A DNA stretch of 64,000 bases from Ferruginibacter sp. GTDB taxonomy: Bacteria > Bacteroidota > Bacteroidia > Chitinophagales > Chitinophagaceae. Of this stretch, positions 7,710-45,202 are shown piece after piece. The first letter of the stretch is position 1. Each line of letters opens with the position of its first letter. The notes under the pieces are model-generated. The model was given only the letters and a program-made list of their open reading frames with translations. It made no database searches and was not told the origin of the DNA. The position numbers and the translations under genes are program-made. The stretch is from assembly GCA_044220615.1 (NCBI GenBank), contig JBGAQR010000005.1, forward strand, positions 309,974 to 373,973. The letters run 5' to 3'.

Positions 7710-7785
7710 TTGTCAGGTTGAGCTTGTCGAAACCGGTATGAGTATAAAGCGTTTTTAACCCGCCTTCGACAAGCTCAGGCTGACA
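7710..7785. terminator. REP-like inverted repeat TGTCAGGYTGAGCTTGTCGAA between convergent thiolase and hisS genes; probable bidirectional terminator
   Basis: Left arm at 7711-7733 and right arm at 7763-7785. The arms are complementary at about 19 of 23 positions, with a ~29-nt loop. Confidence 0.6.
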
Positions 7786-10074: not shown

Positions 10075-10087
10075 GGCGCAAAGATAA

Positions 10088-10190
10088 GCTGCAAGCCACA
10101 AGCTTCAAGGGGCAGTTTAATGAATAAGGTCTTCTTTATATTATGCTTGTCCCTTGTGGCTACTTTCCTTGAGTCTTCTTCCTTGTAGCT
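10088..10190. repeat. Word-level inverted repeat (GCAAGCCACAAGCTTCAAGG versus CCTTGTGGCT / CCTTGAG / CCTTGTAGCT) in a divergent promoter region
   Basis: The words CAAGCCACAAG/CTTGTGGCT and TTCAAGG/CCTTGA sit in opposite orientation around a ~33-nt AT-rich loop. Confidence 0.55.
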
Positions 10191-11151: not shown

Positions 11152-11170
11152 GCCCCGCCAATGGCGGGGC
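11152..11170 (+). repeat. GC hairpin GCCCCGCC-AAT-GGCGGGGC (CCGCC/GGCGG family)
   Basis: 8-bp perfect stem, 13 nt upstream of the next ATG (11184). No T-tract follows. Confidence 0.7.
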
Positions 11171-14355: not shown

Positions 14356-14375
14356 AAAAGAAAGGTAAATAAGTG

Positions 14376-14412
14376 ATCCCCGTTATTGATTCAGTAACGG
14401 GGATTTATTTTT
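14376..14412 (+). terminator. Rho-independent terminator after the TPR gene
   Basis: 10-bp stem ATCCCCGTTA / TAACGGGGAT with a 9-nt loop, followed by TTATTTTT. Confidence 0.75.
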
Positions 14413-14441
14413 CAATCTATTGAATATTGCTTCTGCTGCCT

Positions 14442-14449
14442 TATTTTTG
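14442..14449 (+). promoter_or_regulatory. Candidate Bacteroidota -7 box (TATTTTTG, consensus TAnnTTTG) for the nuo operon
   Basis: Exact match to TAnnTTTG, 25 nt upstream of the nuoA ATG. An ATTG lies about 20 nt further upstream. Confidence 0.4.
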
Positions 14450-14473
14450 CCGGTAATCAGAATAATTAATCCA

Positions 14474-14869
14474 ATGCGTTTTTTTCTGTTACAGGCTACC
14501 GATGTTAACAATGCGGCAAATTACCTGCCCATTGCTCTCCAACTGATTTTTGCCATTGGATTAATAGCTACCATCATTATCGGATCAGATTATTTAGGCC
14601 CCAAAAGAAAAACATCCGATAAACTCCAGAATTTTGAAAGCGGTATAGAGATAAAAGGCAATGCCCGCCAGCCAATGGCCATTAAGTATTTCCTGGTTGC
14701 CATATTGTTTGTGTTGTTTGATGTGGAAGTGATCTTCTTTTATCCCTATGCGGTTAATTTCCGGGAACTGGGATGGAGCGGATTTGCTGCCGTAGTGGTA
14801 TTTGTGGCATTGTTTATAACAGGCTTAGTGTATATTTTTAAGAAAGGCGCCCTTAAGTGGGAAGAATAG
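14474..14869 (+). CDS. nuoA: NADH-quinone oxidoreductase subunit A
   Basis: 3-TM protein of ~130 aa (FDVEVIFFYPY motif), first gene of the nuo cluster. Start trimmed to the ATG at 14474. Confidence 0.85.
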   Translation: MRFFLLQATDVNNAANYLPIALQLIFAIGLIATIIIGSDYLGPKRKTSDKLQNFESGIEIKGNARQPMAIKYFLVAILFVLFDVEVIFFYPYAVNFRELGWSGFAAVVVFVALFITGLVYIFKKGALKWEE

Positions 14870-14885
14870 AATCTGGTAATTAACC

Positions 14886-14965
14886 GATTTGAAAATTTGA
14901 AGATGATAAGAGACCTTGAATTCAGCAGGTATTAGATCATCACCAAATTACCAAATCATCAAATC
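14886..14965. repeat. Hairpin element in the nuoA-nuoB spacer (GATTTGAA / TTCAAATC word family)
   Basis: Left arm GATTTGAAAATTTGAAGATGAT (14886-14907) against ATCATCACCAAATTACCAAATC (14936-14957), 18 of 22 positions complementary. Flanked by GTAATTAA direct repeats. Confidence 0.75.
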
Positions 14966-14976
14966 AAGTAATTAAG

Positions 14977-15540
14977 ATGTCTCGTCCGGTACAATATAAC
15001 AACCACATCAAATTCGAAGGGATCCCCGAAGGATATATGGGCGAAGGGTTCATGGCAACCAATCTCGAAAAAGTGGTGAGCCTTGCCCGTAAAAATTCCA
15101 TCTGGCCCTTACCCTTTGCTACCAGTTGCTGTGGTATTGAGTTTATGGCTACAGCCGCCAGTCATTACGACCTGGCCAGGTTTGGCGCCGAGCGTATGAG
15201 CTTCTCTCCACGCCAGTGCGACCTTATATTGGTGATGGGAACCATTGCAAAAAAAATGGGCCCTGTGTTGCGGCAGGTTTACCTGCAAATGGCCGAACCC
15301 CGTTGGGTGATGGCTGTAGGCGCTTGTGCCTCATCTGGCGGCATATTTGATACCTACTCTGTTTTGCAGGGAATTGACCAGGTGATACCGGTAGATGTGT
15401 ATGTGCCCGGTTGCCCACCCAGACCCGAAGCAATACTGGATGGGTTCATCAAAATACAGGAACTGGTAAATACAGAAGGATTGAGAAGAAGACATAGTGA
15501 CCAGTATAAAGAGTTACTGGCAGGATATGGGATTCAATAA
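14977..15540 (+). CDS. nuoB: NADH-quinone oxidoreductase subunit B
   Basis: N2-cluster cysteines [14 protein letters not shown] and CPPRPE. Confidence 0.92.
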
Positions 15541-15550
15541 ACTCCCTCCG

Positions 15551-15618
15551 CCCCCTAAAGGGGGAACTGGGGGTAAAATACTTTAATGAAATTAAAAGAT
15601 GCAAAGCCCCTTTAGGGG
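15551..15618. repeat. Two CCCCT(AA/TT)AGGGG palindromes in the nuoB-nuoC spacer
   Basis: CCCCCTAAAGGGGG at 15551-15564 and CCCCTTTAGGGG at 15607-15618. Each is followed by a TGGGG word. Confidence 0.7.
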
Positions 15619-15627
15619 TTTGGGGTT

Positions 15628-16125
15628 ATGACCAACGAAACGATACAACTAAAACTAACAGAAAAATTCGGCGACCAGCTAACCAATTGGCAGGAACCTT
15701 ATGGTATGCTCACTTTTACGGCGCCAAAAGATCTTAATTTAAAAGTACTCCAGTTTTTATTTGATGATGCGGAATTAAAGTTTCAGTTTCTTACTGACCT
15801 GCAGGCCGTTCATTATCCCGACCGTAAAGGAGAAGAACTGGCTGTTGTGTATCACCTGCATAATTTAAAAGACAATGTACGGATACGTTTTAAAGTATTC
15901 ACCGCAATAGAAAAGCCGGATGTGTTCAGTGCAACAGCCCTGTACCAGTCGGCCAATGTAATGGAAAGAGAAACCTATGATTTTTATGGGGTGAATTTTA
16001 TTGGCCATCCCAACCTGAAACGTATATTGAATGTAGACGAGATGGATTATTTCCCCATGCGGAAACAATACCCGGTAGAAGACCAGTTGCGGATAGATAA
16101 GGATGATGAGATGTTTGGAAGATGA
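15628..16125 (+). CDS. nuoC: NADH-quinone oxidoreductase subunit C
   Basis: 165 aa of the 30-kDa subunit family (ERETYDFYGV...GHP). Position between nuoB and nuoD. Confidence 0.88.
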   Translation: MTNETIQLKLTEKFGDQLTNWQEPYGMLTFTAPKDLNLKVLQFLFDDAELKFQFLTDLQAVHYPDRKGEELAVVYHLHNLKDNVRIRFKVFTAIEKPDVFSATALYQSANVMERETYDFYGVNFIGHPNLKRILNVDEMDYFPMRKQYPVEDQLRIDKDDEMFGR

Positions 16126-16128
16126 GTT

Positions 16129-16204
16129 GATTTGAAGATTTGGAAATTTGAAGATGTGCTGAAGCCATTACCAAATCACCAAATCATCAAATTTTCAAAT
16201 TGAT
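16129..16204. repeat. Hairpin element in the nuoC-nuoD spacer, same word family as the nuoA-nuoB element
   Basis: Shares the exact 13-mer AAATTTGAAGATG (16144-16156 and 14893-14905) and the exact 15-mer ACCAAATCATCAAAT (16178-16192 and 14950-14964) with the nuoA-nuoB spacer. Confidence 0.8.
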
Positions 16205-16209
16205 TATTT

Positions 16210-17430
16210 ATGAGTGAACATATTATTTTACCCGAAGGAAGTATCGAAAAGCAGACCACCACGCTGAACCTGGGGCCTACGCACCCGGCCACGCATGGCG
16301 TGTTTCAGAATATACTGGAGCTGGATGGCGAACGCATCCTCAAATCCACTTCAACCGTAGGGTATATTCACCGGGCTTTTGAAAAGATAGCAGAACGCCG
16401 CCCGCTGTACCAGATCACCCCGCTTACCGACAGGCTGAATTATTGCTCATCTCCCATCAACAACATGGGATGGCATTTAACCTGTGAAAAATTATTGGGT
16501 ATTAAAACTCCCAAAAGGGTAGATTACCTGCGTGTGATCATCATGGAACTGGCACGAATTGCCGATCACCTGATCTGTAACTCCATTGTTGGGGTGGATA
16601 CCGGCGCTTTCACCGGGTTCCTGTATGTAATGCAATACCGTGAACTAATTTATGAGATATATGAAGAAATATGTGGCTCCCGTCTTACTACTACTATTGG
16701 GCGTATTGGCGGTTTTGAAAGGAATTTCACTCCTGCGGCATTCGAAAAACTCGAAAAATTCCTGAAAGAATATCCCCGTACTCTAAAGGAGTTTGAAAAC
16801 CTCTTTACCCGTAACCGCATCTTCATGGATCGTACCATCGGTTGCGGTCCCATTGCGGCTGAAAGGGCATTGAACTACGGCTTCACCGGGCCAAACCTGC
16901 GTGCCGCCGGGGTTGATTACGATGTTCGGGTGCATACACCCTACAGCAGTTACGAAGATTTTGATTTTATAATCCCGGTAGGTACAACCGGCGATTGTTA
17001 CGATCGTTTCCTGGTTCGTAACGAAGAAATGTGGCAGAGCCTCAGCATCATTGAACAGGCCTACCAGAAAGTGCAGGAATTCAAAGGAGCAGAGGCCGAA
17101 GTGTTTCATGCCGATACCCCTGCCTACTATTTACCCGAAAAGAAAGATGTGTATACCAAGATGGAAGCACTCATCTATCACTTCAAGATCGTGATGGGTG
17201 AAACAGCCATCCCCGAAGGTGAAGTATATAGTGCCGTAGAAGGAGCCAATGGCGAACTGGGATTCTATTTAATAAGTGATGGCGGCAGAACACCATACCG
17301 GTTACATTTCCGCAGGCCTTGCTTTATTTATTACCAGGCCTTTGAAGAACTGGTGAAAGGTGGAATGTTAAGTGATGCAGTGATCACCATGAGTAGTTTA
17401 AACCTGATAGCAGGAGAAATGGATGCTTAG
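16210..17430 (+). CDS. nuoD: NADH-quinone oxidoreductase subunit D
   Basis: 406 aa of the 49-kDa subunit family (LNLGPTHPATHGV; RIGGFERN). Confidence 0.92.
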   Translation: MSEHIILPEGSIEKQTTTLNLGPTHPATHGVFQNILELDGERILKSTSTVGYIHRAFEKIAERRPLYQITPLTDRLNYCSSPINNMGWHLTCEKLLGIKTPKRVDYLRVIIMELARIADHLICNSIVGVDTGAFTGFLYVMQYRELIYEIYEEICGSRLTTTIGRIGGFERNFTPAAFEKLEKFLKEYPRTLKEFENLFTRNRIFMDRTIGCGPIAAERALNYGFTGPNLRAAGVDYDVRVHTPYSSYEDFDFIIPVGTTGDCYDRFLVRNEEMWQSLSIIEQAYQKVQEFKGAEAEVFHADTPAYYLPEKKDVYTKMEALIYHFKIVMGETAIPEGEVYSAVEGANGELGFYLISDGGRTPYRLHFRRPCFIYYQAFEELVKGGMLSDAVITMSSLNLIAGEMDA

Positions 17431-17445
17431 TTAATTAAGAACCTG

Positions 17446-17461
17446 CCTGTCGGTAGACAGG
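17446..17461. repeat. Short hairpin CCTGTC-GGTA-GACAGG in the nuoD-nuoE spacer
   Basis: 6-bp stem. The 25-nt insert is flanked by AATTAAGAA direct repeats at 17433-17441 and 17467-17475. Confidence 0.7.
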
Positions 17462-17477
17462 TTATGAATTAAGAATT

Positions 17478-17972
17478 ATGAGTGTTGAATTTTCAAAAGA
17501 AAAGTTAGCTGAAGTTGCGGAGATAGTAAAACGCTACCCCGAGGGCAAACACAAAAGCGCCCTGCTTCCTGTATTGCATTTGGCTCAGGAAGAATTCGGC
17601 GGATGGCTGGATGTGCCGGTGATGGACTATGTGGCTTCGCTTTTGAAAATTGAACCCATTGAAGTATATGAAGTGGCCAGCTTTTACAGCATGTATAATT
17701 TAAAGCCGGTAGGCAAATACATGTTCGAGGTTTGCCAAACGGGGCCCTGTATGATTAACGGCAGCGATGAGATCATTGGGTATATCAAAGAGAAACTGAA
17801 CATCAAAGTGGGTGAAACAACGGCAGACGGACTGTTCACCTTAAAAACAGTGGAATGCCTGGGCGCCTGCGGTTATGCTCCCATGATGCAGCTGGGAAGG
17901 AACTACCGGGAACACCTGACAAAAGAAAAGATAGACGCCATCATTGAAGAGCACCGTGCAAAAGCAAATTAA
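17478..17972 (+). CDS. nuoE: NADH-quinone oxidoreductase subunit E (2Fe-2S)
   Basis: Cysteine pattern CQTGPC...ECLGACGYAP. Confidence 0.9.
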   Translation: MSVEFSKEKLAEVAEIVKRYPEGKHKSALLPVLHLAQEEFGGWLDVPVMDYVASLLKIEPIEVYEVASFYSMYNLKPVGKYMFEVCQTGPCMINGSDEIIGYIKEKLNIKVGETTADGLFTLKTVECLGACGYAPMMQLGRNYREHLTKEKIDAIIEEHRAKAN

Positions 17973-17975
17973 TCA

Positions 17976-18401
17976 TTGAAGAAGTTCTTAACCATATTAT
18001 TCTTTTTTATTGCAGTCAACGGCTTTGCACAAACCGCAGATGAAGCAAAGCTGGTGCAAACAATGAAGGAATTTCACCAGGCCCTGGTTAATAAGAATAC
18101 GGTTTCTATCAACCAGCAAACAGATAAAGTGCTGAGCTATGGACACAGCAATGGCTGGGTGGAAACAAAAGCCGATGTGATCAAAGACCTGGAAACCGGG
18201 TATATCAGTTACCAGGGTTTTAAAGAAGACAGTATAACGGTTTCTATGAATGGTAATATGGCCAATGTCCGGTTTGTGGCAGATATAACAGCAACCATGA
18301 AGGGCGGAACCAATACCTATCATTTAAAAGTGCTGGAAGTGTGGGTGAAAAAAAGTAAACGGTGGGTGTTGTTTGCAAGGCAGGCGGTGAAGGCCCCCTA
18401 A
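17976..18401 (+). CDS. Secreted NTF2-fold (DUF4440/SnoaL-like) protein embedded in the nuo operon
   Basis: TTG start 3 nt after the nuoE stop. Signal peptide MKKFLTILFFFIAVNGFAQ. ~120-aa mature domain ending in the W.K...RW.L pattern typical of DUF4440-like proteins. Confidence 0.65.
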   Translation: MKKFLTILFFFIAVNGFAQTADEAKLVQTMKEFHQALVNKNTVSINQQTDKVLSYGHSNGWVETKADVIKDLETGYISYQGFKEDSITVSMNGNMANVRFVADITATMKGGTNTYHLKVLEVWVKKSKRWVLFARQAVKAP

Positions 18402-18423
18402 ATCCCCCCGAAGGGGACTTTAG
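18398..18423. repeat. Hairpin CTAAATCCCC-CCGAA-GGGGACTTTAG overlapping the DUF4440 stop codon
   Basis: ~10-bp stem with one bulge, read directly. Confidence 0.65.
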
Positions 18424-18488
18424 AGCCAGTCAACTAAAAACGATTTTTAATGTTGGTAACGAAAAATAAATTATAAAACGTAATTGTC

Positions 18489-18506
18489 CCCCGCCAGCTG
18501 GCGGGG
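18489..18506 (+). repeat. GC hairpin CCCCGCC-AGCT-GGCGGGG, followed by ATAGGGGCT and the nuoF ATG
   Basis: 18-nt perfect palindrome. The ATG follows at 18516. Confidence 0.8.
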
Positions 18507-18515
18507 ATAGGGGCT

Positions 18516-19871
18516 ATGAGTAGAAAATTATTATTAGAAAAAGCACATGTGGAAGGCATCCGCTATTACGACGTTTATCGCCGTGAGGGCGGATACCGCA
18601 GCGTGGAGAAGGCATTAAAGATGGCGCCGGCAGATATCGTGGAAGAAGTGAAGAAGAGCGGCTTGCGTGGACGAGGCGGCGCCGGTTTTCCTACAGGCTT
18701 AAAATGGAGTTTTATTGCAAAGCCCGAAGGCGTTCCCCGCCACCTGGTGGTAAATGCCGATGAAAGTGAGCCGGGAACGTTTAAAGACCGTTACCTGATG
18801 GAATTCATTCCGCATATCTTAATTGAAGGAATGATCGTTTCGTCATTTGCACTTGGCTCCAATGTTTCTTATATATACATACGCGGCGAATACCACTGGA
18901 TCGTTGATATTTTAGAACAGGCCATTGCCGAAGCAAAACAAAATGGTTTTTTGGGAAAGAATATTTTAGGCACCGGTTTCGATTGTGAAATTTATGTTCA
19001 CCGCGGCGCCGGCGCTTATATCTGCGGCGAAGAAACTGCCCTGATAGAATCACTGGAAGGCAAGCGGGGTAATCCAAGAATTAAACCACCGTTCCCGGCT
19101 GTAAAAGGCGCCTGGGAAAGACCTACGGTGGTTAATAATGTGGAAACGATCGCAGCCGTTGTTCCCATCATCAACAATGGCGGCGAAGAATATGCAAAGA
19201 TCGGCGTGGGAAAAAGCACCGGCACCAAACTGATGAGCGCCTGCGGTAATATCAACAAGCCGGGTGTTTATGAAATTGATATGACCATCTCGGTAGAAGA
19301 ATTTATTTACAGTGATGAATATTGTGGTGGTATTCCCAAAGGAAGAAAATTAAAAGCCTGTATCCCCGGCGGTTCATCGGTTCCAATTCTGCCGGCTAAT
19401 TTATTACTTACTACAGCTAAGGGAGAGAAGCGGCTGATGAACTATGAAAGTTTAAGCGATGGCGGTTTTGCAACAGGAAGTATGATGGGCAGCGGTGGAT
19501 TTATTGTACTGGATGATGCACAGTGTGTGGTAAAACATACATACACGCTGGCAAGGTTCTATCGCCATGAAAGTTGCGGACAATGTTCACCCTGCCGCGA
19601 AGGAACTGGATGGATGGAGAAAATATTACTGAATATAGATAATGGCAAAGGAAAGATGAGTGATATCGACCTGCTTTGGGATATTCAGCGCAAGATCGAA
19701 GGAAATACCATTTGTCCGCTGGGCGATGCAGCAGCCTGGCCGGTTGCGGCAGCCATTCGCCATTTCCGTGATGAGTTTGAGTGGCACGTGAACAATCCGG
19801 ATGAATGTTTAAGGAAGAATTACGGACTGGCGCATTATGCGGATCCGATTCATGTGCCAGTACCGGCATAG
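18516..19871 (+). CDS. nuoF: NADH-quinone oxidoreductase subunit F (FMN, 4Fe-4S)
   Basis: GLRGRGGAGFPTG (FMN/NADH site) and ESCGQCSPCREG (N3 cluster). Confidence 0.92.
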   Translation: MSRKLLLEKAHVEGIRYYDVYRREGGYRSVEKALKMAPADIVEEVKKSGLRGRGGAGFPTGLKWSFIAKPEGVPRHLVVNADESEPGTFKDRYLMEFIPHILIEGMIVSSFALGSNVSYIYIRGEYHWIVDILEQAIAEAKQNGFLGKNILGTGFDCEIYVHRGAGAYICGEETALIESLEGKRGNPRIKPPFPAVKGAWERPTVVNNVETIAAVVPIINNGGEEYAKIGVGKSTGTKLMSACGNINKPGVYEIDMTISVEEFIYSDEYCGGIPKGRKLKACIPGGSSVPILPANLLLTTAKGEKRLMNYESLSDGGFATGSMMGSGGFIVLDDAQCVVKHTYTLARFYRHESCGQCSPCREGTGWMEKILLNIDNGKGKMSDIDLLWDIQRKIEGNTICPLGDAAAWPVAAAIRHFRDEFEWHVNNPDECLRKNYGLAHYADPIHVPVPA

Positions 19872-19872
19872 A

Positions 19873-20331
19873 TTTCACGCAAAGAGCGCAAAGGAGCAAG
19901 GATGCAAAGAAGAGTATGACAGAAAACGAGATATCAAAAATAGTTTTTGATTTATGTGTATTGGTTCATAAAAAGTATGGGCCGGGATTATTTGAAAATG
20001 TTTATGAAGAAATAATTTGTCATGAATTAAATAAATTAGAAATCCCTTTCACCCGGCAGCAAGGGATTCCTTTGATACATGATGAAATTAGAATGGAAAT
20101 CGGATTCAGGGCAGATATAATAGTTGAGAATAAAGTCATTTTGGAATTGAAATCGATCGAGGCATTAGCTGAAATTCATTATAAGCAATTGCTGACTTAT
20201 TTGAAACTAACAGATATTAAATTAGGAATGTTGATCAACTTTAATGTTCCGCTTATTAAAGATGGAATACACCGTATTGTAAATAAACTATAAAACTTGC
20301 GCCTTTGCTCCTTTGCGAACATTGCGTGAAA
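19873..20331. other. 459-bp inverted-repeat-bounded cassette carrying a GxxExxY ORF; fills the nuoF-nuoG junction
   Basis: Arms are 19873-19899 TTTCACGCAAagagCGCAAAGGAGCAA and 20305-20331 TTGCTCCTTTGCGaacaTTGCGTGAAA, with 23 of 27 positions complementary. It starts 1 nt after the nuoF stop and ends 5 nt before the nuoG ATG. Confidence 0.65.
19916..20293 (+). CDS. GxxExxY protein (PD-(D/E)XK nuclease-like small protein family)
   Basis: 125 aa. GLFENVY signature and ADIIVENKVILELKS (D...ExK). Start trimmed to the ATG at 19916, because the longer ORF overlaps nuoF and reads through the repeat arm. Confidence 0.8.
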   Translation: MTENEISKIVFDLCVLVHKKYGPGLFENVYEEIICHELNKLEIPFTRQQGIPLIHDEIRMEIGFRADIIVENKVILELKSIEALAEIHYKQLLTYLKLTDIKLGMLINFNVPLIKDGIHRIVNKL

Positions 20332-20336
20332 CAAAT

Positions 20337-21467
20337 ATGGCAGACGAAATAAAAAAAGAAGCACCTGCAAATTTTAAAGTAACCATCGACAACATCACGA
20401 TCGAAGTTGCGCCGGGTACTACTATATTAAATGCAGCCCGGCAGATCGGTGGAGACGTTACACCGCCTGCCATGTGCTATTACAGCAAGTTACAGGGCAG
20501 TGGCGGTAAATGCCGCACCTGCCTGGTGGAAGTGGCTGCCGGTTCAACCGCCGACCCAAGGCCTATGCCTAAATTAGTTGCCTCATGCCGTACCAATGTA
20601 ATGGATGGCATGGTGGTAAAAAATATTACCAGCGATAAAGTAACGGATGCAAGAAATGGCGTGGTTGAATTCTTGCTCATTAATCACCCGTTGGATTGCC
20701 CCATCTGCGACCAGGCCGGCGAATGTCATTTGCAGGACCTCGGTTATGACCATGGTAAAGAAGGCACACGCTACGAATTTAAAAGAAGAACATTCGAGAA
20801 GGAAGATATCGGCCCATACATCCAGTTGCACATGACAAGGTGTATCCTCTGTTATCGCTGCACTTATGTTGCTGATCAATTGACCGATAAAAGAGTACAT
20901 GGTATTTTAGACCGCGGCGATCATGCAGAAATATCAACCTATATTTCCAAAGCCATTGATAATGATTTCAGCGGGAATATGATCGATGTTTGCCCGGTAG
21001 GTGCATTAACCGATAAAACATTCCGCTTTAAGAACAGGGTTTGGTTCACCAAACCGGTGGATGCTCACCGCAATTGCGAAAACCCTAAATGCTGCGGCAA
21101 AGCAACCTTATGGTTACGTGGCGATGAAGTGTACCGTGTTACCGCACGTAAAGACGAATGGGGCGAAGTGCAGAGTTATGATGGTAAACCCGGATGGATC
21201 TGCAATACCTGCCGCTTTGATAAAAAGAAAACGGCTGACTGGACCGTAGAAGGATTAACAACCATCAGCCGGCATTCGGTTATTGGCGCCAATAAATACA
21301 GCGGGCTGGAAATGCCGAAAGATACTGTTAAGGAAGTGATGGGTGGAAGAGATCCAAAGCTGCTGATGGATATTCACAAGGTGAGTGGAGTGAATGATCC
21401 CGGCATCAATTTAAGTGCGATCAACCGGCCGGCGCACAGCGATGACTTTTCAAAGAACGGAAAATAA
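20337..21467 (+). CDS. nuoG: NADH-quinone oxidoreductase subunit G, short form (Fe-S domains only)
   Basis: 2Fe-2S CYYSKLQGSGGKCRTC, His(Cys)3 cluster HPLDCPICDQAGEC, and 4Fe-4S CILCYRC...CP. Only 376 aa, so it lacks the molybdopterin-like domain. Confidence 0.85.
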   Translation: MADEIKKEAPANFKVTIDNITIEVAPGTTILNAARQIGGDVTPPAMCYYSKLQGSGGKCRTCLVEVAAGSTADPRPMPKLVASCRTNVMDGMVVKNITSDKVTDARNGVVEFLLINHPLDCPICDQAGECHLQDLGYDHGKEGTRYEFKRRTFEKEDIGPYIQLHMTRCILCYRCTYVADQLTDKRVHGILDRGDHAEISTYISKAIDNDFSGNMIDVCPVGALTDKTFRFKNRVWFTKPVDAHRNCENPKCCGKATLWLRGDEVYRVTARKDEWGEVQSYDGKPGWICNTCRFDKKKTADWTVEGLTTISRHSVIGANKYSGLEMPKDTVKEVMGGRDPKLLMDIHKVSGVNDPGINLSAINRPAHSDDFSKNGK

Positions 21468-21493
21468 AAGAAGAACATTTTTAATAAAGGAAT

Positions 21494-22546
21494 ATGCTTT
21501 TAGCGATCGATTGGCTTTTAATAGTGGAGAAACTGGTTCTCATCGTTATCGTGGTGATGGCATCATTGCTCATTGCCATGTATACCACGTTTGCTGAAAG
21601 AAAGGTAGCAGCAGTTCTGCAAGACAGGCGTGGACCCAACCGGGCCGGACCTTTTGGTATTCTGCAACCGGTAGCCGATGGATTGAAATTATTCTTCAAA
21701 GAAGAGATCATCCCGAATTTTTCTTCTAAATTCTTATTCATACTTGGCCCTTCGCTGGCCATGCTTACGGCCATCATGACCGGCGCCGTTGTTCCCTGGG
21801 GAAATACCGTACACCTCTTCGACCGGGATATCAGTTTGCAGATAGCCGATGTGAACGTAGGTATATTATATGTGTTTGCGGTGGTGAGCATGGGCGTATA
21901 CGGCATTATGATCGGCGGCTGGGCAAGCAACAACAAATATTCTTTAATGGGCGGATTGAGGGCAGCCTCACAGATCATCAGTTACGAACTGCCCATGGGT
22001 ATTTCACTGATCGCCCTGCTGATGGTTACCGGAACGCTCAGCCTGAAAGAAATGGTATTGCAGCAGCAATGCGGTTTATGGAACATCGTTTACCAGCCGC
22101 TGGGATTCCTGATATTCCTTATCTGCGCATTTGCAGAATGTAACCGTACGCCATTCGACCTGCCCGAAGCAGAGAACGAACTGATCGGTGGTTATCATAC
22201 GGAGTATTCATCCATGAAACTGGGCTTCTACCTTTTTTCTGAGTACATCAATATGTTTGTAAGCAGTGTGATCATGAGTACCTTGTTCTTTGGCGGATAC
22301 GATATACCGTTCTTAAATGAGGCAGATTATAACCAGAACTGGATGGCTTTTTTCGGAATAATGGCGCTGATGGCAAAAGCATGCTGCTTCATCTTCCTGT
22401 TCATGTGGGTACGGTGGACCATTCCAAGATTCCGGTACGATCAGCTGATGAACCTGGGATGGCGGATATTAATTCCACTGGCATTGGCAAATATGCTGGT
22501 AACAGGCGCATTGGTTTTATTCAAACAAAACAATTGGCATTTTTAA
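21494..22546 (+). CDS. nuoH: NADH-quinone oxidoreductase subunit H
   Basis: 350-aa polytopic protein. Contains AERKVAAVLQDRRGPN and CNRTPFDLPEAE(N)ELIGGYHTEYS. Confidence 0.92.
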   Translation: MLLAIDWLLIVEKLVLIVIVVMASLLIAMYTTFAERKVAAVLQDRRGPNRAGPFGILQPVADGLKLFFKEEIIPNFSSKFLFILGPSLAMLTAIMTGAVVPWGNTVHLFDRDISLQIADVNVGILYVFAVVSMGVYGIMIGGWASNNKYSLMGGLRAASQIISYELPMGISLIALLMVTGTLSLKEMVLQQQCGLWNIVYQPLGFLIFLICAFAECNRTPFDLPEAENELIGGYHTEYSSMKLGFYLFSEYINMFVSSVIMSTLFFGGYDIPFLNEADYNQNWMAFFGIMALMAKACCFIFLFMWVRWTIPRFRYDQLMNLGWRILIPLALANMLVTGALVLFKQNNWHF

Positions 22547-22560
22547 TTTTATCAAACGAA

Positions 22561-22590
22561 TTGTCAGGCTGAGTTTATCGAAGCCGGCTT
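22561..22590. repeat. Solo arm of the TGTCAGGYTGAG..TCGAA family plus the palindrome AAGCCGGCTT, in the nuoH-nuoI spacer
   Basis: TGTCAGGCTGAGTTTATCGAAGCCGG matches 7711-7736 at about 22 of 26 positions. AAGCCGGCTT (22581-22590) is a perfect 10-nt palindrome. Confidence 0.65.
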
Positions 22591-22600
22591 AATAAACAAT

Positions 22601-23155
22601 ATGCAAGCATTAACTACAAGGGTAAAACAGGTCGACCGCAGGGAAATGAGTTTCCTGGAGCGGCTTTACCTGGTTTCTATTTTCAAGGGCATGATGATCA
22701 CTTTCATGCACATGTTCAAGAAGAAGCCCACCATTAATTACCCGGAGAAGACACGTCCGTTCAGCCCGGTGTTTCGGGGGTTGCACATTCTAAACAGGGA
22801 TGAAGAAGGAAGAGAGAACTGCACGGCCTGCGGGTTGTGTGCCGTTGCTTGTCCCGCCGAAGCCATTACCATGGAAGCGGCAGAAAGACAAACCGGGGAG
22901 GAGAAATTATACCGGGAAGAAAAATATGCAGCCAAATACGAGATCAATATGCTGCGTTGTATTTTCTGCGGCTTGTGTGAAGAAGCATGTCCGAAAGACG
23001 CCATTTATTTAAGTGAAACATTTGCGCCGGCGGATTACCAGCGCAAACAATTTATCTATAACAAAAACGAATTACTGATCCCTCATCCCATCAACGAACC
23101 CGAAGCGTATAAGAAGGCATTGGGTAACCGGGTGAAAAGAGAAAAGATTAATTAA
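22601..23155 (+). CDS. nuoI: NADH-quinone oxidoreductase subunit I (2x 4Fe-4S)
   Basis: CTACGLCAVACP and CIFCGLCEEACP. Confidence 0.92.
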   Translation: MQALTTRVKQVDRREMSFLERLYLVSIFKGMMITFMHMFKKKPTINYPEKTRPFSPVFRGLHILNRDEEGRENCTACGLCAVACPAEAITMEAAERQTGEEKLYREEKYAAKYEINMLRCIFCGLCEEACPKDAIYLSETFAPADYQRKQFIYNKNELLIPHPINEPEAYKKALGNRVKREKIN

Positions 23156-23160
23156 GGTTT

Positions 23161-23667
23161 ATGAGCATTACTGAAATATTATTCTGGGGATTATCTCTGC
23201 TGGCGCTTGGCGCTGCCATTATGGTGGTTACCAGCAAAAGCCCGGTGCACAGTATCCTGTCGCTGATCGTGGTTTTTATCGCCATTTCGGGTCATTACAT
23301 CCTGTTGAATGCACAGTTTTTGGCCATCGTAAATATTATTGTATATGCCGGCGCCATCATGGTGTTGTTCTTGTTTGTGGTGATGCTGATGAACCTCAAT
23401 GCCGAGTCGGAACCAAAAAAGAACCGCCTTTTGCAGTTTGCAGGATTGATCTCCGGTGGTTGTTTATTCCTGGTATTGATTTCCGCCATAACAAAATCAA
23501 GTTCTGCAAATAATGTAATGCAGATGGGCAGTGGCAACAGCGGCCTTATTAAAGAGCTTGGCAAGGTATTGTTCAACGATTATGTGATCCCCTTCGAGAT
23601 AAGCAGCGTATTGTTTTTAAGTGCAATGATCGGGGCTGTTGTAGTTGGTAAAAAAGAAAAAGTATAA
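23161..23667 (+). CDS. nuoJ: NADH-quinone oxidoreductase subunit J
   Basis: 168-aa hydrophobic protein in the nuoJ position (VYAGAIMVLFLFVVM). Confidence 0.85.
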   Translation: MSITEILFWGLSLLALGAAIMVVTSKSPVHSILSLIVVFIAISGHYILLNAQFLAIVNIIVYAGAIMVLFLFVVMLMNLNAESEPKKNRLLQFAGLISGGCLFLVLISAITKSSSANNVMQMGSGNSGLIKELGKVLFNDYVIPFEISSVLFLSAMIGAVVVGKKEKV

Positions 23668-23742
23668 CACGAATTGAAACGAATTACACGAAGTGATTTA
23701 AAATGGATAGTAGATAATTCGTGTAATTGGTGTAATTCGATT
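23668..23742. repeat. Hairpin element in the nuoJ-nuoK spacer (CGAATTACACGAA / TTCGTGTAATTCG words)
   Basis: Left arm 23668-23692 and right arm 23718-23742. An 11-nt block and a 6-nt block are exactly complementary. The element starts at the base after the nuoJ stop. Confidence 0.75.
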
Positions 23743-23757
23743 AATTAGTGAACTAGT

Positions 23758-24090
23758 ATGGAAATTAAATGGTACATAGGTTTGGCAGTGGCTTTATTCT
23801 GCACCGGCATTGTGGGGGTACTTACCCGCCGCAATTCCATCATCATCTTTATGTGCATAGAGCTGATGCTGAATTCGGTGAACTTGTTGCTGGTGGCATT
23901 CTCAAAAATGCATGCCGCTTCGCCGGTGGCGCAGAGCCTTCCCAATGTGGTAAGTGATGCACAGATATTCGTGTTCTTCATCATGGTGGTGGCAGCGGCC
24001 GAGGTAAGTGTGGGATTAGCGATCATTGTCATGATGTATCGTAATATTCACTCGGTGGATATAAACTTTTTAAACAGGTTGAAAAATTAG
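23758..24090 (+). CDS. nuoK: NADH-quinone oxidoreductase subunit K
   Basis: 110 aa, 3 TM segments, with IELMLNSVNLL and AAAEVSVGLAI motifs. Confidence 0.9.
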   Translation: MEIKWYIGLAVALFCTGIVGVLTRRNSIIIFMCIELMLNSVNLLLVAFSKMHAASPVAQSLPNVVSDAQIFVFFIMVVAAAEVSVGLAIIVMMYRNIHSVDINFLNRLKN

Positions 24091-24096
24091 GCCCCA

Positions 24097-24116
24097 TCTC
24101 CGCCAACTGGCGGAGA
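24097..24116 (+). repeat. GC hairpin TCTCCGCC-AACT-GGCGGAGA
   Basis: 8-bp perfect stem, 6 nt after the nuoK stop. Confidence 0.8.
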
Positions 24117-24162
24117 GAAAGGCAGGAGTATTAATAATATTTTGAAATAAAAACAAAAATTC

Positions 24163-24178
24163 TCCGCCAACCGGCGGA
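24163..24178 (+). repeat. GC hairpin TCCGCC-AACC-GGCGGA, followed by ATAGGGGT and the nuoL ATG
   Basis: 6-bp perfect stem. ATAGGGGT at 24179-24186 and the ATG at 24187. Confidence 0.8.
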
Positions 24179-24186
24179 ATAGGGGT

Positions 24187-26085
24187 ATGAGAAATGTATT
24201 ACACATGGTTTGGTTAATTCCCGTGCTGCCTTTGCTGGGATTCTTACTCAATGGCCTGGGCCGCAAGAAGGTTTCCAAAAGCCTGGCCGGCATCATTGGC
24301 AGCGGCACAGTTTTTCTTTCATTCCTCATCAGTGTGTACGTCTTCTTCAGCGTTAAAGGAGGCAATACATACGTTGCCCATTATTTCGATTTTATAAACA
24401 CCGATGCACTGAAGATCGGTTTCGATTTCCAGGTAGACCAGCTTTCTTCCCTCTTTTTATTGATAATAACCGGTGTTGGCTTTTTGATACATGTGTATTC
24501 AACGGCTTACATGCACGACGAAGAGCCGAAGGATTTTGCAAAATATTTCGCCTACCTCAACCTGTTTGTGTTTTCCATGCTTTTGCTGGTAATGGGAGCC
24601 AATTATGTGATCATGTTCATTGGTTGGGAAGGTGTGGGGCTTTGCTCTTATTTATTGATCGGCTATTGGTTTAAAAATACCAATTACAATGTGGCGGCTA
24701 AGAAGGCCTTCATCATGAACCGCATTGGCGACCTGGGATTTTTGCTGGCGGTGTTCTGGCTGGTTGCAAAAGTTGGTTCGGTTGACTTTCATAATGTGTT
24801 TGCGAACGTTTCTAAACTATCAGCAACTGATGTAACCGGTATTACTCTTTTATTATTTGTTGGCGCCATGGGCAAAAGCGCCCAGATACCTTTATACACC
24901 TGGTTGCCTGATGCGATGGCGGGTCCAACTCCGGTGAGCGCCCTGATACATGCTGCCACCATGGTTACAGCCGGTATCTACATGATCGCAAGAAGCAATA
25001 TATTATATACCATGGCGCCCGTTTCTCAAAACGTGGTTGCCATTGTTGGATTGTCTACGGCCATTCTTGCCGCTACCATTGCACTGAAACAAAATGATAT
25101 TAAGAAAGTGCTGGCTTACTCAACCGTTAGCCAGTTGGGATATATGTTCTTAGCGCTGGGTGTTGGCGCCTATACCGGCGCTGTATTTCATGTAATGACG
25201 CATGCATTCTTTAAAGCGCTGTTGTTCCTGGGGGCCGGAAGTGTTATTCATGCCATGAGCGGCGAACAGGATATACGCAACATGGGCGGATTGAAAAAAT
25301 ACATGAGCGCTACGCATATCACTTTCCTGTTGGGATGTTTGGCCATTGCCGGCATGCCTCCTTTCTCCGGTTTCTTTTCAAAAGATGAGATACTGGCTGC
25401 AGCCTATGCCAAAAGCCCCATCCTTTGGGTGGTGGGTGTTGGAGGCGCTATCATGACCGCATTCTATATGTTCCGTTTATATGCCATGACCTTCCTCGGA
25501 AAATTCAGGGGAACGCATGACCAGGAGCATCATTTACATGAAAGTCCGAAAGCAATTACAATACCCCTCATCATACTCGCCATTCTTTCTGTTATCGGTG
25601 GCTGGATCGGCATACCGGAGATATTTATGCATGGCGGACACAGGCTGGAAGAATTTCTGGCGCCGGTATTTGCACAGGGCAACGCCCTCACCGTAAAACA
25701 TCACATGTCTCATTCAACCGAATACCTGTTAATGGGTGTTTCGGTTGCACTGGCGCTGGGCGCTTTATTATATGCCTGGAATAAATTCAGCAAATACCAG
25801 AAAACAGGTAAAGAAGAAACAGGCCTTGGCAAAGTGCTGGAGAATAAATGGTATGTGGATGAACTGTATGATAACATCATTGTAAAACCGGTGCTGGCCA
25901 TTGGAAAATATTTTAACAACGTGGTAGAGAAGAAAGGCATTGATGGTTTTGTGAACGGCATCGGCAAAGCGGTTAACTACAGCAGCCGGCAGATACGTTT
26001 GCTGCAATCCGGCCAGGTAGGCGCTTATGTGCTGATGATGGTGCTGGGCATTTTAATTTTATTCATCGTTCAATTGTTTTTGTAA
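24187..26085 (+). CDS. nuoL: NADH-quinone oxidoreductase subunit L
   Basis: 632-aa antiporter-like subunit (WEGVGLCSYLLIGYW; SALIHAATMVTAG). Confidence 0.92.
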   Translation: MRNVLHMVWLIPVLPLLGFLLNGLGRKKVSKSLAGIIGSGTVFLSFLISVYVFFSVKGGNTYVAHYFDFINTDALKIGFDFQVDQLSSLFLLIITGVGFLIHVYSTAYMHDEEPKDFAKYFAYLNLFVFSMLLLVMGANYVIMFIGWEGVGLCSYLLIGYWFKNTNYNVAAKKAFIMNRIGDLGFLLAVFWLVAKVGSVDFHNVFANVSKLSATDVTGITLLLFVGAMGKSAQIPLYTWLPDAMAGPTPVSALIHAATMVTAGIYMIARSNILYTMAPVSQNVVAIVGLSTAILAATIALKQNDIKKVLAYSTVSQLGYMFLALGVGAYTGAVFHVMTHAFFKALLFLGAGSVIHAMSGEQDIRNMGGLKKYMSATHITFLLGCLAIAGMPPFSGFFSKDEILAAAYAKSPILWVVGVGGAIMTAFYMFRLYAMTFLGKFRGTHDQEHHLHESPKAITIPLIILAILSVIGGWIGIPEIFMHGGHRLEEFLAPVFAQGNALTVKHHMSHSTEYLLMGVSVALALGALLYAWNKFSKYQKTGKEETGLGKVLENKWYVDELYDNIIVKPVLAIGKYFNNVVEKKGIDGFVNGIGKAVNYSSRQIRLLQSGQVGAYVLMMVLGILILFIVQLFL

Positions 26086-26091
26086 GAAGAT

Positions 26092-27579
26092 ATGGACCCG
26101 AAAAATATTTGGATAACATTCCCGGAGCTGCTCGTTTGGTTTCCCTTGCTGGCAGGGGTGGTTGCTTTTATCATCCGAGATGAGAAGAAGGTAAAGACCT
26201 GGGCATTGATCGCTTCGCTGATCACCCTGGGCATTTCAATAACAAGTTTGGTTTATTCAGATAACACAAAACATTTTTACATCAATAATGTAAGTTACTT
26301 CTGGCTGAAATATGTAGGCAGTAACCTTAGCCTGGGGCTTGATGGAATGGGGCATATGCTTACGGCTTTAACAGCAGTTGCCTTCCCCCTCATCTTTATT
26401 GCAACTAGTAAACCGAATTTTAAAAATGCCAATGCATATTACGGGTTGATGCTGTTAACGCAGGCGGGATTGATGGGTGTGTTTACCGCCATGGATGTAC
26501 TGATCTTTTATTTCTTCTGGGAGCTTGCGGTTATACCTGCTTACTTCCTATGCAGCCGCTGGGGCGGCGAGCGAAGGATACAGGCCACTTTCAAATTCTT
26601 TGTGTATACGTTTGCCGGTTCCTTGTTGATGCTCATCGGCATCATGTATGTGTACACACATACGTATCCAACAGCTTATTCCGAGCATTCGTTTTCGATG
26701 AGCGCTTTTTATAACGCTACCCTTACTGCCAATGAACAAAACTGGGTGTTCTGGTTATTCTTTGTTGCGTTTGCTATTAAGATGCCGGTATTTCCTTTTC
26801 ATACCTGGCAGCCCGATACCTATGAGCAGGCGCCTACTTCCACTACCATGGTGCTGAGCGGTATCATGGTCAAGATGGGCATCTTTGCCGTGATCAGGTG
26901 GCTGGTGCCGGTTTTTCCTGCGGCAGCAGCCCGGTTTGATAATATAGTGATCGGACTTTCGGTGGTAGGGATGATCTATGCAAGCCTCATCGCCATTAAA
27001 CAAGACGACCTCAAACGTTTTGTAGCCTATTCATCCATTGCACATATCGGGTTGATGTGTGCGGCCATCTTTGCCAAAAGCAGTATTGGTTTACAGGGAG
27101 TGATGATACAGATGTTCAGCCATGGTATCAATATCATCGGCATGTGGATAGTGGTTGACCTGGTGGAAAAACAAACCGGTACCCGTAAAATATCCGAACT
27201 GGGTGGTATTGCTCATAAAGCGCCCGCACTTACCATTTTTTTGGTAGTGATTGCCCTGGCAAATATTGCACTGCCACTGACCAATGCTTTTGTGGGAGAG
27301 TTTATGATGTTCAGCGGGTTATTCAAATTCAATATGATCTATACGGCCGTGGCCCTGGTAAGCATCATACTGGCTGCCGTGTATACATTGAATATGGTGC
27401 AAAAGGTTTTTTACGGAGAAGCGAATGCAGTTACCAATGCGGTACAGGAAATTTCATTGAACCAGAAATTAGTATTGAGTGTGCTGGTGATCTTTATTTT
27501 CCTGTTTGGTGTTTTTCCGCAGCCACTACTTGATTTAACGAAGGATACCGTAATGGCTATATTAACAAGATTTAAATAA
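26092..27579 (+). CDS. nuoM: NADH-quinone oxidoreductase subunit M
   Basis: 495-aa antiporter-like subunit (PFHTWQPDTYEQAPT). Confidence 0.9.
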   Translation: MDPKNIWITFPELLVWFPLLAGVVAFIIRDEKKVKTWALIASLITLGISITSLVYSDNTKHFYINNVSYFWLKYVGSNLSLGLDGMGHMLTALTAVAFPLIFIATSKPNFKNANAYYGLMLLTQAGLMGVFTAMDVLIFYFFWELAVIPAYFLCSRWGGERRIQATFKFFVYTFAGSLLMLIGIMYVYTHTYPTAYSEHSFSMSAFYNATLTANEQNWVFWLFFVAFAIKMPVFPFHTWQPDTYEQAPTSTTMVLSGIMVKMGIFAVIRWLVPVFPAAAARFDNIVIGLSVVGMIYASLIAIKQDDLKRFVAYSSIAHIGLMCAAIFAKSSIGLQGVMIQMFSHGINIIGMWIVVDLVEKQTGTRKISELGGIAHKAPALTIFLVVIALANIALPLTNAFVGEFMMFSGLFKFNMIYTAVALVSIILAAVYTLNMVQKVFYGEANAVTNAVQEISLNQKLVLSVLVIFIFLFGVFPQPLLDLTKDTVMAILTRFK

Positions 27580-27595
27580 CAAAACCAAATGGTGG

Positions 27596-27611
27596 TCCGC
27601 CGGTTGGCGGA
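27596..27611 (+). repeat. GC hairpin TCCGCC-GGTT-GGCGGA, followed by ATAGAGGT and the nuoN ATG
   Basis: 6-bp perfect stem. ATAGAGGT at 27612-27619 and the ATG at 27620. Confidence 0.8.
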
Positions 27612-27619
27612 ATAGAGGT

Positions 27620-29014: not shown

Positions 29015-29034
29015 ATAAACGGTTAGCCGTTTAT
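29015..29034 (+). terminator. Possible terminator hairpin ATAAACGG-TTAG-CCGTTTAT after nuoN
   Basis: 8-bp perfect stem immediately after the stop. It is AT-rich and followed by AAAAGTTTT rather than a clean T-tract. Confidence 0.45.
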
Positions 29035-29090
29035 AAAAGTTTTGCAGCCCAATGCCTATCTCTTGTTAACTTTAGGGAGAATAACAGCTC

Positions 29091-44989: not shown

Positions 44990-45120
44990 AAGCCCCTTCC
45001 GGCAGGTTCATCAGGTAAATCCCGGAAAACAGCTATTCCCCGGCCCGTAAGGGTTTAAGGAATCGGGTTTTTCAAAAAAAAATAATTAACAAAAAATTGG
45101 TATTAACGAAAAAAGCCCTA

Positions 45121-45167: not shown

Positions 45168-45202
45168 TGATTGCAAATTTTTAAAACGAAACGCTTGTTA
45201 TT

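Follow-up and report, generated by a model that had tools for sequence, protein, structure and literature searches.

Self-complementary repeats in the nuo spacers

We analyzed the spacers of the nuo operon of Ferruginibacter sp. in a 64,000-nt stretch of DNA (assembly GCA_044220615.1, contig JBGAQR010000005.1, positions 309,974 to 373,973; hereafter the window), which carries a complete and codirectional nuoA-N on the + strand (14420/14474 to 29014, Pfam). Our best explanation, held with moderate confidence, is that these spacers contain several unrelated and dispersed families of self-complementary repeats, resembling 23S rRNA intervening sequences (IVSs), repetitive extragenic palindromic (REP) elements and Correia elements, which are co-transcribed and probably serve as RNase substrates or as protectors of RNA ends. 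We documented the presence, fold potential, family relations, dispersal, turnover and orientation bias of the repeats as well as the constraint on their arms. Comparison of related loci suggests that, over periods like those in which species diverge, the families are inherited, lost, replaced and nested. A first-pass annotation of this DNA had suggested that the ten elements may be versions of one vehicle; they fall into at least three unrelated kinds. The first comprises word-arm hairpins together with a cassette between nuoF and nuoG, in which arms of tandem 7-9-nt words and their reverse complement would form a stem of 25-35 bp around a free loop or a small open reading frame (ORF). The second is a bipartite GC element, and the third an arm of the TGTCAGGCTGAGCTTGTCGAAGCC type between nuoH and nuoI.

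A DUF4440 gene (window 17976-18401, Pfam) lies between nuoE and nuoF, and a 125-aa PDDEXK_3/GxxExxY ORF (Pfam) between nuoF and nuoG. The junctions measure 107 nt (A-B), 87 nt (B-C), 84 nt (C-D), 47 nt (D-E), 3 nt (E-DUF4440), 114 nt (DUF4440-F), 466 nt (F-G), 26 nt (G-H), 54 nt (H-I), 5 nt (I-J), 90 nt (J-K), 96 nt (K-L), 6 nt (L-M) and 40 nt (M-N). Thirteen of these lengths, including those of the four junctions described as hairpin-free (E-DUF4440, G-H, I-J and L-M), agree with the first-pass annotation, which gave F-G as 465 nt. Hairpins had been reported at ten junctions; nine of them are real and lie where they had been placed (Table 1), but at H-I there is only a solo arm together with a 10-nt palindrome that lacks a loop, which do not make a credible hairpin. 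Compared with dinucleotide shuffles, the A-B, C-D, D-E, J-K and K-L spacers fold with z <= -3, whereas B-C, DUF4440-F, H-I and M-N do not reach this value. The z-scores at B-C, DUF4440-F and M-N are weak because the GC palindromes are too small for an energy test of the whole spacer, and the significance of these three hairpins comes from enrichment, not from z.

Enrichment was evident within the window. All four CCGCC-N4-GGCGG sites, likewise all CCCC-N3-4-GGGG palindromes, lie in nuo junctions, and every GATTTGAA and CGAATTACACG array lies in a nuo spacer, with the nuo spacers making up about 15% of the intergenic DNA. When junctions were scored by objective criteria, a hairpin was present in 9 of the 14 in nuo and in 4 of the 29 other codirectional ones (Fisher p = 0.0014); if H-I is included, the nuo count is 10/14 (p = 0.0003).

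In order to compare related operons, we searched with NuoH and kept one genome per species, which gave 80 loci with 77-97% identity, all from metagenome-assembled genomes or isolates of Ferruginibacter or other Chitinophagaceae (labelled with L-numbers). The nuo genes were placed by tblastn and each junction was measured. Because short GC palindromes and low-complexity A/T arms escape the minimum free energy (MFE) z-score, explicit hairpin counts were used. Over 81 genomes perfect GC hairpins occur at 0.97 per kb in nuo spacers, 0.20 in flanking intergenic DNA and 0.15-0.18 in coding DNA (p = 1e-9), and long imperfect hairpins at 1.11, 0.48 and 0.01-0.02 per kb, respectively (p = 3e-5). The hairpins of the flanking DNA are mostly terminators of the A-run/stem/T-run type, and word-type hairpins are nearly confined to nuo. 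About 14 word-type hairpins, among them members of the CGAATTACACG and TGTCAGGCTGAG families, were found in 355 kb of unrelated contexts from similar organisms. As a rough estimate, the enrichment in nuo is perhaps 2-3-fold per intergenic kb, and the operon is a favored but not an exclusive habitat.

Turnover among relatives

The occupants of a junction differ even between the closest relatives. In the window J-K holds a CGAATTACACG hairpin, in L002 (95% NuoH identity) a GC unit, and in L005, L008 and L009 only 5-6 nt. Conversely, I-J is 5 nt long in the window and holds a GC unit of 39-48 nt in L002, L003, L007, L009, L010 and L012. Among 71 genomes with a measured J-K junction, 20 have at most 30 nt, 27 have 31-200 nt and 24 have 530-620 nt. 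The length of D-E spans 12-707 nt and that of I-J 2-197 nt, and L-M is nearly always 3-15 nt long. We counted changes of occupancy on a neighbor-joining tree of 62 genomes: the Fitch minimum is 19 for J-K, 21 for M-N, 13-15 for G-H, H-I, I-J and K-L, and 4 for L-M.

The D-E hairpin lies inside a 25-nt stretch flanked by a 9-nt direct repeat AATTAAGAA (17433-17441 and 17467-17475). The D-E spacers of L003 and L005 are 18-21 nt long, contain a single similar copy of AATTAAGAA and have no hairpin. The repeat looks like a target duplication; over all nuo hairpins, flanking repeats are not significant.

Constraint on the A-B hairpin

As the first-pass annotation had proposed, the A-B and C-D elements are paralogous, sharing an exact 13-mer (14893 and 16144) and an exact 15-mer (14950 and 16178). 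One outcome that it had named as speaking against insertions, conserved spacer sequence, is partly borne out at A-B. Orthologs of the A-B hairpin were found in the window and seven other genomes, and in these eight genomes mean pairwise identity is 85% in the 5' arm, 79% in the 3' arm, 74% in the tail to the ATG and 51% in the loop, compared with 56% at third codon positions and 47% at 4-fold sites of nuoB. Since the arms are conserved far above neutral sites, the element is old and constrained and not a recent insertion; arms held in place in this way argue against pure decay.

In some relatives the 5' arm of the A-B element lies within the 3' end of nuoA (L002 3118-3145; also L007, L027 and L036). 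There the nuoA stop codon TGA is part of the word GATTTGA, so that the element supplies C-terminal codons.

Word-arm hairpins and ORF cassettes

Among the word-arm elements of the nuo junctions in the window, the F-G cassette carries an ORF. Its 35-nt arms are 83% complementary, and when the complete 466-nt spacer is folded, the MFE structure joins them across 389 nt with 34 bp (duplex -46.4 kcal/mol). The same arms with a GxxExxY ORF occupy F-G in at least 13 relatives, and arm type goes with ORF type: the GxxExxY ORFs at F-G of the relatives have CACGCAAAG / GCGCAAAG words 5' of them and CTTTGCG words 3' of them (CGCAAAG-word arms), whereas ORFs of the 23S_rRNA_IVP family have AAAAGTAAAAA/TTTTGACTTTT word arms (AAAAGTAAAAATTCAAAAG and TTTTGACTTTTGACTTTT words; AAAAGTCAAAA-word arms), both without exception. 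The assignment to 23S_rRNA_IVP, a four-helix bundle, was checked with Pfam for the representative from L019 (PF05635, 76.8 bits); ORFs resembling it lie in cassettes of like build at the same junction in L025, L043, L064 and L072. GxxExxY and 23S_rRNA_IVP were the only ORFs found between matching arms in the window and 160 loci. A different word pair, CACGGAGA / TCTCCGTG, accompanies a distant GxxExxY homolog located ahead of scpB in a metagenome contig.

Cassettes also occur in reduced or altered form. At F-G the ORF is frameshifted in L004, L020, L029 and L033, hairpins with the same arms are ORF-less in L013 and L016, and L005 has a single arm and L049 multiple arms. ORF-less AAAAGTCAAAA hairpins at B-C, C-D, D-E, J-K and K-L of L004, L008, L012, L025, L039 and others account for 26 of 64 long nuo hairpins, and one word family occupies several junctions of the same genome in L004, L008, L012 and L039. 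The suggestion that the smaller hairpins are empty or decayed cassettes is thus right in kind, but for A-B, C-D and J-K it holds by shared architecture only, because neither the window nor the 160 loci yielded an ORF-bearing cassette whose arms are built of GATTTGAA or CGAATTACACG. In L038 the F-G junction has AAAAGTAAAAA word arms followed by CACGCAAGG word arms and lastly a GxxExxY ORF, and one type of cassette appears to have inserted into the hairpin of another.

The hairpin families of individual junctions recur. Members of the C-D family lie at C-D in L002, L005, L012, L016, L025, L027 and L062, and members of the J-K family at J-K in L007, L011 and L015 and at a non-nuo site in L106 (12284). 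The H-I arm is conserved at H-I in L002, L009 and L015, and a near-identical copy of the full hairpin of its family, found in the window at 7711-7785, lies at a non-nuo site in L126 (2208-2282).

At the end of nuoC the conserved codons (GATGAGATGTTTGGAAGATGA) are similar to the words GATTTGAAGATTTGGAAATTTGAAGATG next to them (window 16105-16156), and the C-D words may be a local duplication of the nuoC end rather than an insertion. Hairpins of the same family in neighboring junctions flank whole genes, namely nuoC (L008, L037), nuoK (L039) and nuoE (L064); such inverted repeats could pair across the cistron in the RNA or favor rearrangement of the DNA. A test of word-hairpin orientation by which arm is A-rich and comes first was rejected, an inverted repeat being identical on both strands.

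A bipartite GC element between cistrons

The first-pass annotation counted the GC hairpins among the word repeats resembling cassette arms. They belong to a separate, oriented and bipartite element, which is also found before many non-nuo genes. In aligned examples the left end directly follows the stop codon and consists of (A/G)CCCC, 2-4 nt and a hairpin of the type CCCCC-TRAA-GGGGG or TCCGCC-N4-GGCGGA, with a tail such as AACTGGG or GAGAAAGGCA; after an AT-rich linker of 40-90 nt the right end opens with AAAAGC or AAAATTC and continues through a second hairpin and WWW-GGGG-Y to the ATG. The hairpins are perfect palindromes of 14-18 nt with loops of 3-5 nt, and compound left ends span about 30-35 nt. 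Full units occur at B-C, DUF4440-F and K-L and a solo right end at M-N. The G tract lies 1-5 nt upstream of the ATG, a gap too short for a canonical Shine-Dalgarno site. In Bacteroidota Shine-Dalgarno pairing is largely unused and translation initiation is unusual.

The element is oriented with transcription: in nuo loci 12 right ends are forward and one is reversed, and all ten left ends are forward. At 69 of 621 junctions the end of a GC hairpin is 4-20 nt away from the start codon that follows it (6.5 expected), and 15 of 52 relatives have a hairpin at this distance before the nuoN start (1.1 expected), with diverse stems. A metagenome scan for the right end followed by ATG yielded at least 120 stretches. 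Among the matches listed, 54 precede real ORFs; only about eight of these are nuo genes and at least 45 are non-nuo ORFs. Genes named by eye from their translations, not by family search, include hisS, trpE, trpD, metF, aroK, ruvX, dapF, recO and gcvT as well as mreC, atpF, atpC, coxII, pth, leuD, der and scpB. A codirectional gene lies within 200 nt upstream in 32 of the 54 listed matches, and the left partner is present in many. A unit specific to nuo was considered and rejected, as the scan places the element before dozens of unrelated genes; it is a dispersed, oriented and mostly intercistronic family of low-GC, Bacteroidota-like genomes.

The K-L architecture is also found ahead of trpE, trpD and other genes in metagenome contigs, and the K-L unit of L003 is near-identical. 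The same ends occur on elements of 87-328 nt. At B-C the linker is conserved in L007 and L088, with the hairpins swapped between CCCC and CCGCC types. GC hairpins and TGTCAGGCTGAG words were found inserted in each other. At D-E of L006 the TGTCAGGCTGAGCTTGTCGAAGCC word sits in the loop of a left GC hairpin, and at H-I of L008 a TCCGCCGGTTGGCGGA hairpin replaces the middle of the TGTCAGGCTGAGCTTGTCGAAGCC word.

Table 1. Self-complementary elements of the nuo junctions (window coordinates; z, folding of the whole spacer against dinucleotide shuffles)
Feature	Position	Strand	z	Description
A-B word-arm hairpin	14886..14965	+	-4.1	8-nt words GATTTGAA / AATTTGAA ... CCAAAT / TCAAATC; free loop; MFE -21 to -22.6 kcal/mol
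B-C bipartite GC element	15541..15627	+	-1.4	left and right hairpins with AT-rich linker between
B-C left compound hairpin	core 15551-15564	+		ACTCCC..CCCCCTAAAGGGGG..GGGGGT
B-C right hairpin	15607-15618	+		CCCCTTTAGGGG, then TTTGGGGTT, then ATG
C-D word-arm hairpin	16129..16204	+	-3.8	paralog of A-B; shared 13-mer and 15-mer
D-E short hairpin	17446-17461 (element 17443..17463)	+	-3.0	CCTGTC-GGTA-GACAGG
DUF4440-F bipartite GC element	18390..18515	+	-1.6	two hairpins; left end same in L003
DUF4440-F left hairpin	18403-18417	+		overlaps DUF4440 stop codon region
DUF4440-F right hairpin	18489-18506	+		CCCCGCC-AGCT-GGCGGGG, then ATAGGGGCT, then ATG
F-G cassette	19872..20337	+		35-nt arms 19873-19907 and 20297-20331; words CACGCAAAG / GCGCAAAGG
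F-G GxxExxY PD-(D/E)XK ORF	19916-20293	+		125 aa; PF13366, 125 bits; TIGR04256 (NCBIfam), 131 bits
H-I solo arm	22562..22590	+	-1.5 / -1.1 (two runs)	TGTCAGGCTGAGTTTATCGAAGCCGGCTT; TGTCAGGCTGAG / TGTCAGGCTGAGCTTGTCGAAGCC-type; family with full hairpin at 7711-7785
J-K word-arm hairpin	23668..23742	+	-4.95	words CGAATTACACG / CGTGTAATTCG
K-L bipartite GC element	24091..24186	+	-4.8	two TCCGCC-N4-GGCGGA hairpins; 25-nt terminal inverted repeats
K-L left end		+		GCCCC-ATC-[TCCGCC AACT GGCGGA]-GAGAAAGGCAGG, then AT-rich linker
K-L right end		+		AAAATTC-[TCCGCC AACC GGCGGA]-ATAGGGGT, then ATG
M-N solo right end	hairpin 27596-27611 (element 27596..27619)	+	-1.9	TCCGCC-GGTT-GGCGGA, then ATAGAGGT; abuts nuoN ATG

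Other hairpins of the window and genes inserted in nuo

Outside nuo the full TGTCAGGCTGAGCTTGTCGAAGCC-family hairpin at 7711-7785 has arms of 26 nt (z -4.5) and lies between convergent thiolase and hisS genes. A further word-arm hairpin (GCTGCAAGCCACAAGC / CCTTGTGGCTAC, 10085-10190, spacer z -3.5) lies in a divergent region beside a gene for a low-molecular-weight phosphatase, and its words recur at B-C in L060. Two more hairpins, ACTTTGCGTAAG...TACGCAAAGT with CGCAAAG-like words (45120-45168, upstream of the gene at 45203) and the GC hairpin GCCCCGCCAATGGCGGGGC (11152-11170, 13 nt before a start codon at about 11184), are the sole such elements of the window outside nuo. Upstream of the operon a terminator-like hairpin AAAACCCCGTTAT...ATAACGGGGTTTT (14375-14405) divides a TPR gene from nuoA and is conserved in L002, L004, L005 and L008.

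Several junctions carry accessory genes. The DUF4440 gene, whose product starts with a stretch resembling a signal peptide, is stably present between nuoE and nuoF in 24 relatives; others have a VOC/glyoxalase-like gene (19 genomes), an Asp_protease_2 gene (10 genomes) or nothing at this place. In 23 genomes (e.g. L052, L013 and L017) nuoJ-nuoK holds an ORF of 175-198 aa with a signal peptide, of which a 189-aa representative had no Pfam match; it may encode a lineage-specific accessory protein of complex I. Toxin-antitoxin-like genes were found within nuo as well, namely a HepT-like gene beside a nucleotidyltransferase gene (L050, H-I) and a HEPN gene (L057, G-H), and DUF6036 and AAA-ATPase genes fill further junctions in relatives.

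Relation to known elements

The nearest known anatomy is that of the 23S rRNA IVS, with REP/BIME and Correia elements as functional analogues. In Coxiella the IVS has a 28-bp terminal stem whose arm contains tandem heptamers, its loop carries an S23p ORF, and RNase III excises it (PMC4990558). Like the IVSs of Coxiella, Leptospira and Salmonella, the nuo cassettes are elements of about 430-530 nt with terminal inverted repeats, a stem of about 28-35 bp, tandem arm words of 7-9 nt and a small, decay-prone ORF in the loop, which in relatives belongs to PF05635, and they occupy a highly transcribed non-coding site. The word-arm elements have the build of an IVS set between protein genes. In contrast to IVSs they lie between the genes of an operon (nuoF-nuoG in the window) and not in helices of 23S rRNA, the ORF of the window itself is a GxxExxY PD-(D/E)XK and not S23p / 23S_rRNA_IVP, and ORF-less derivatives of 60-110 nt dominate.

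REP, BIME and REPIN elements are extragenic imperfect palindromes (20-40 bp) of Proteobacteria which are often intercistronic and co-transcribed; REPs are thought to shield upstream mRNA from 3' exonucleases (PMC3733652). The description 'REP-like' holds insofar as the nuo elements are dispersed, polymorphic and self-complementary intergenic repeats; they are short palindromes in extragenic DNA, intercistronic, and their occupancy varies between relatives. It does not extend to the defining tags and partners of REPs: the GTAG/CGTC tag at the foot of the stem is absent, the only two GTAG sites being in loops (17453 and 23710), and no RAYT gene was seen in the 64-kb window, whose ORFs were only partly screened. 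Furthermore, the GC element of nuo is bipartite and fixed relative to stop and start codons, and the phylum is Bacteroidota.

Correia elements (CREE / NEMIS) of Neisseria form hairpin RNA that RNase III binds and cuts or protects (PMC2649163). They share with the nuo elements a size of about 100-150 bp, terminal inverted repeats, frequent co-transcription and polymorphism between strains. Their sequences are unrelated; neither a TA duplication nor an IHF site was found at the nuo elements, and Correia elements are neither tied to start codons nor oriented with transcription. Terminal inverted repeats as in transposable elements of the miniature inverted-repeat type (MITEs) are present at K-L (25 nt). 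Direct repeats of the heptamer TAACTGA near start codons, known from Beggiatoaceae, Cyanobacteria and a few Bacteroidetes and proposed to act post-transcriptionally (PMC4679880), are likewise tandem, short, intergenic and lineage-specific words close to starts; they lack a complementary second arm, whereas each word array of nuo is matched by its reverse complement and forms a hairpin. We found no description of the present elements in the literature on GxxExxY, PDDEXK_3, Bacteroidetes REP/MITE elements or hairpins in nuo operons, and an Rfam search of 14000-29500 on both strands gave no match at E <= 1.

Proposed mechanism and competing explanations

We propose that all elements would be transcribed within a nuo mRNA of about 14.6 kb. 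The long word stems would then be cut by a double-strand-specific RNase (RNase III), as are IVS stems and Correia elements. If a bipartite element were cut within its AU-rich linker, the upstream segment would end in a 3' hairpin and the downstream segment would begin with a 5' hairpin, and the polycistronic RNA would be split into segments of differing stability.

A number of points weigh against this explanation. Cleavage, end protection and effects on subunit stoichiometry are what we infer, and RNase III may act poorly on the AU-rich stems, which are interrupted by a bulge every 6-8 bp. The window is the extreme of the sample: its five strongly structured nuo junctions are the maximum of 57 related genomes (runner-up three), and the pattern partly reflects the selection of the finding. 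Hairpin density in nuo exceeds that of the flanks 2.3-5-fold per kb of intergenic DNA, but the clade-wide share of spacers with z < -3 is not higher (13% in nuo compared with 19% of other codirectional spacers). Empty junctions are common, with at most 30 nt at J-K in 20 of 71 relatives and at I-J in 43 of 69, so that no single element is essential. A compensatory double change is seen in only 1 of 15 A-B pairs, since the arms keep their sequence. The constraint bears on sequence no less than on pairing, and such conservation fits protein recognition or homogenization as well as RNA structure. Direct repeats flank the A-B element (GTAATTAA) and the D-E insert (AATTAAGAA); over 64 nuo hairpins, flanking direct repeats of at least 7 nt occur at 11% compared with 4.8% in a permutation control, which is not significant as a sign of target-site duplication. 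Neither a transposase-bearing element with the same ends nor a donor copy was found in the window or the 160 loci, and mobility is therefore deduced only from the distribution of the elements. The missing ORF cassettes with GATTTGAA or CGAATTACACG arms belong to the same list.

The most serious competitor, which we nevertheless regard as unlikely, is neutral selfish DNA: MITE-like debris and decayed cassettes would be tolerated in the nuo spacers with no consequence for the operon. The highly variable occupancy with its empty sites, the many unrelated families at the same sites, the frameshifted ORFs, half elements and nested insertions, and the toxin-antitoxin-like and other accessory genes in the same junctions are all consistent with it. 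It does not predict that the A-B arms stay far above neutral conservation while the loop drifts, that the GC element is oriented with transcription by 22 to 1, or that the distance between the end of this element and start codons is fixed 10 times as often as chance predicts; the lack of detectable target-site duplications also speaks against it.

A more far-reaching proposal seems improbable to us: the GC element would be a portable intercistronic module of Chitinophagaceae which sets mRNA processing and the start of translation for the downstream cistron, and the word-arm cassettes would be a mobile class that homes to heavily transcribed non-coding spacers, covers both 23S IVSs and operon insertions and is moved by the GxxExxY PD-(D/E)XK protein.

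Less probable again are regulatory RNA devices for coupling or stoichiometry that the host evolved in place for nuo, without dispersed repeats. The conserved arms at orthologous A-B and C-D sites, the recurrence of pre-nuoN hairpins with many different stems and the resemblance of the nuoC C-terminal codons to the adjoining words would suit such devices, as would the K-L fold, in which GCCCC after the stop pairs with GGGGT before the ATG so that upstream translation could unmask the start. They do not explain the GC element before dozens of unrelated genes, the word families at non-nuo sites and as arms of ORF cassettes, or the unrelated sequences at the same junction of sister genomes.

We consider it very unlikely that the repeats punctuate transcription, with the hairpins as internal terminators or attenuators, the linkers as promoters and nuo as several transcription units. 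A strong GC hairpin directly after the stop codon followed by an AT-rich stretch recalls such a design, 8 of the 54 listed metagenome copies have a gene on the opposite strand no more than 200 nt upstream, a setting in which a promoter would be expected, and Correia elements are known to create promoters (PMC2649163). However, no + strand terminator (stem and T run) was found at any nuo junction; the sole terminator-like + strand site of the nuo region is the one upstream of nuoA. Inspection by eye revealed no consistent match to the Bacteroidota-type promoter consensus (TTTG / TAnnTTTG) in the linkers, and sigma-70-like matches are at chance level (39 compared with 31 +/- 5). Chance palindromes in AT-rich spacers have a negligible probability: in four of ten spacers the fold does not stand out from dinucleotide shuffles (z -1.4 to -1.9), but five reach z <= -3, and the enrichment statistics and the exact family members that recur in independent genomes and at other loci refute this explanation.

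Implications

Should the preferred reading of co-transcribed, RNase-directed repeat families be wrong, this clade would be one more lineage with REP- or MITE-like clutter, and the finding will matter more if a role in processing or at start codons is demonstrated. For annotation, the spacers account for nuo operons of this clade that are 2-4 kb longer than expected, and for the presence within these operons of DUF4440, of toxin-antitoxin-like genes and of small ORFs annotated as 'hypothetical'. On the preferred reading, if true, 23S rRNA IVSs would be one habitat of a wider class of hairpin-armed cassettes, which would also settle between the genes of essential operons and leave ORF-less hairpins there, and this would bear on the origin and spread of IVSs. 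The word stems and the bipartite GC unit offer sequence-defined places at which processing by RNase III or a single-strand RNase and internal start-codon control can be studied in Bacteroidota.

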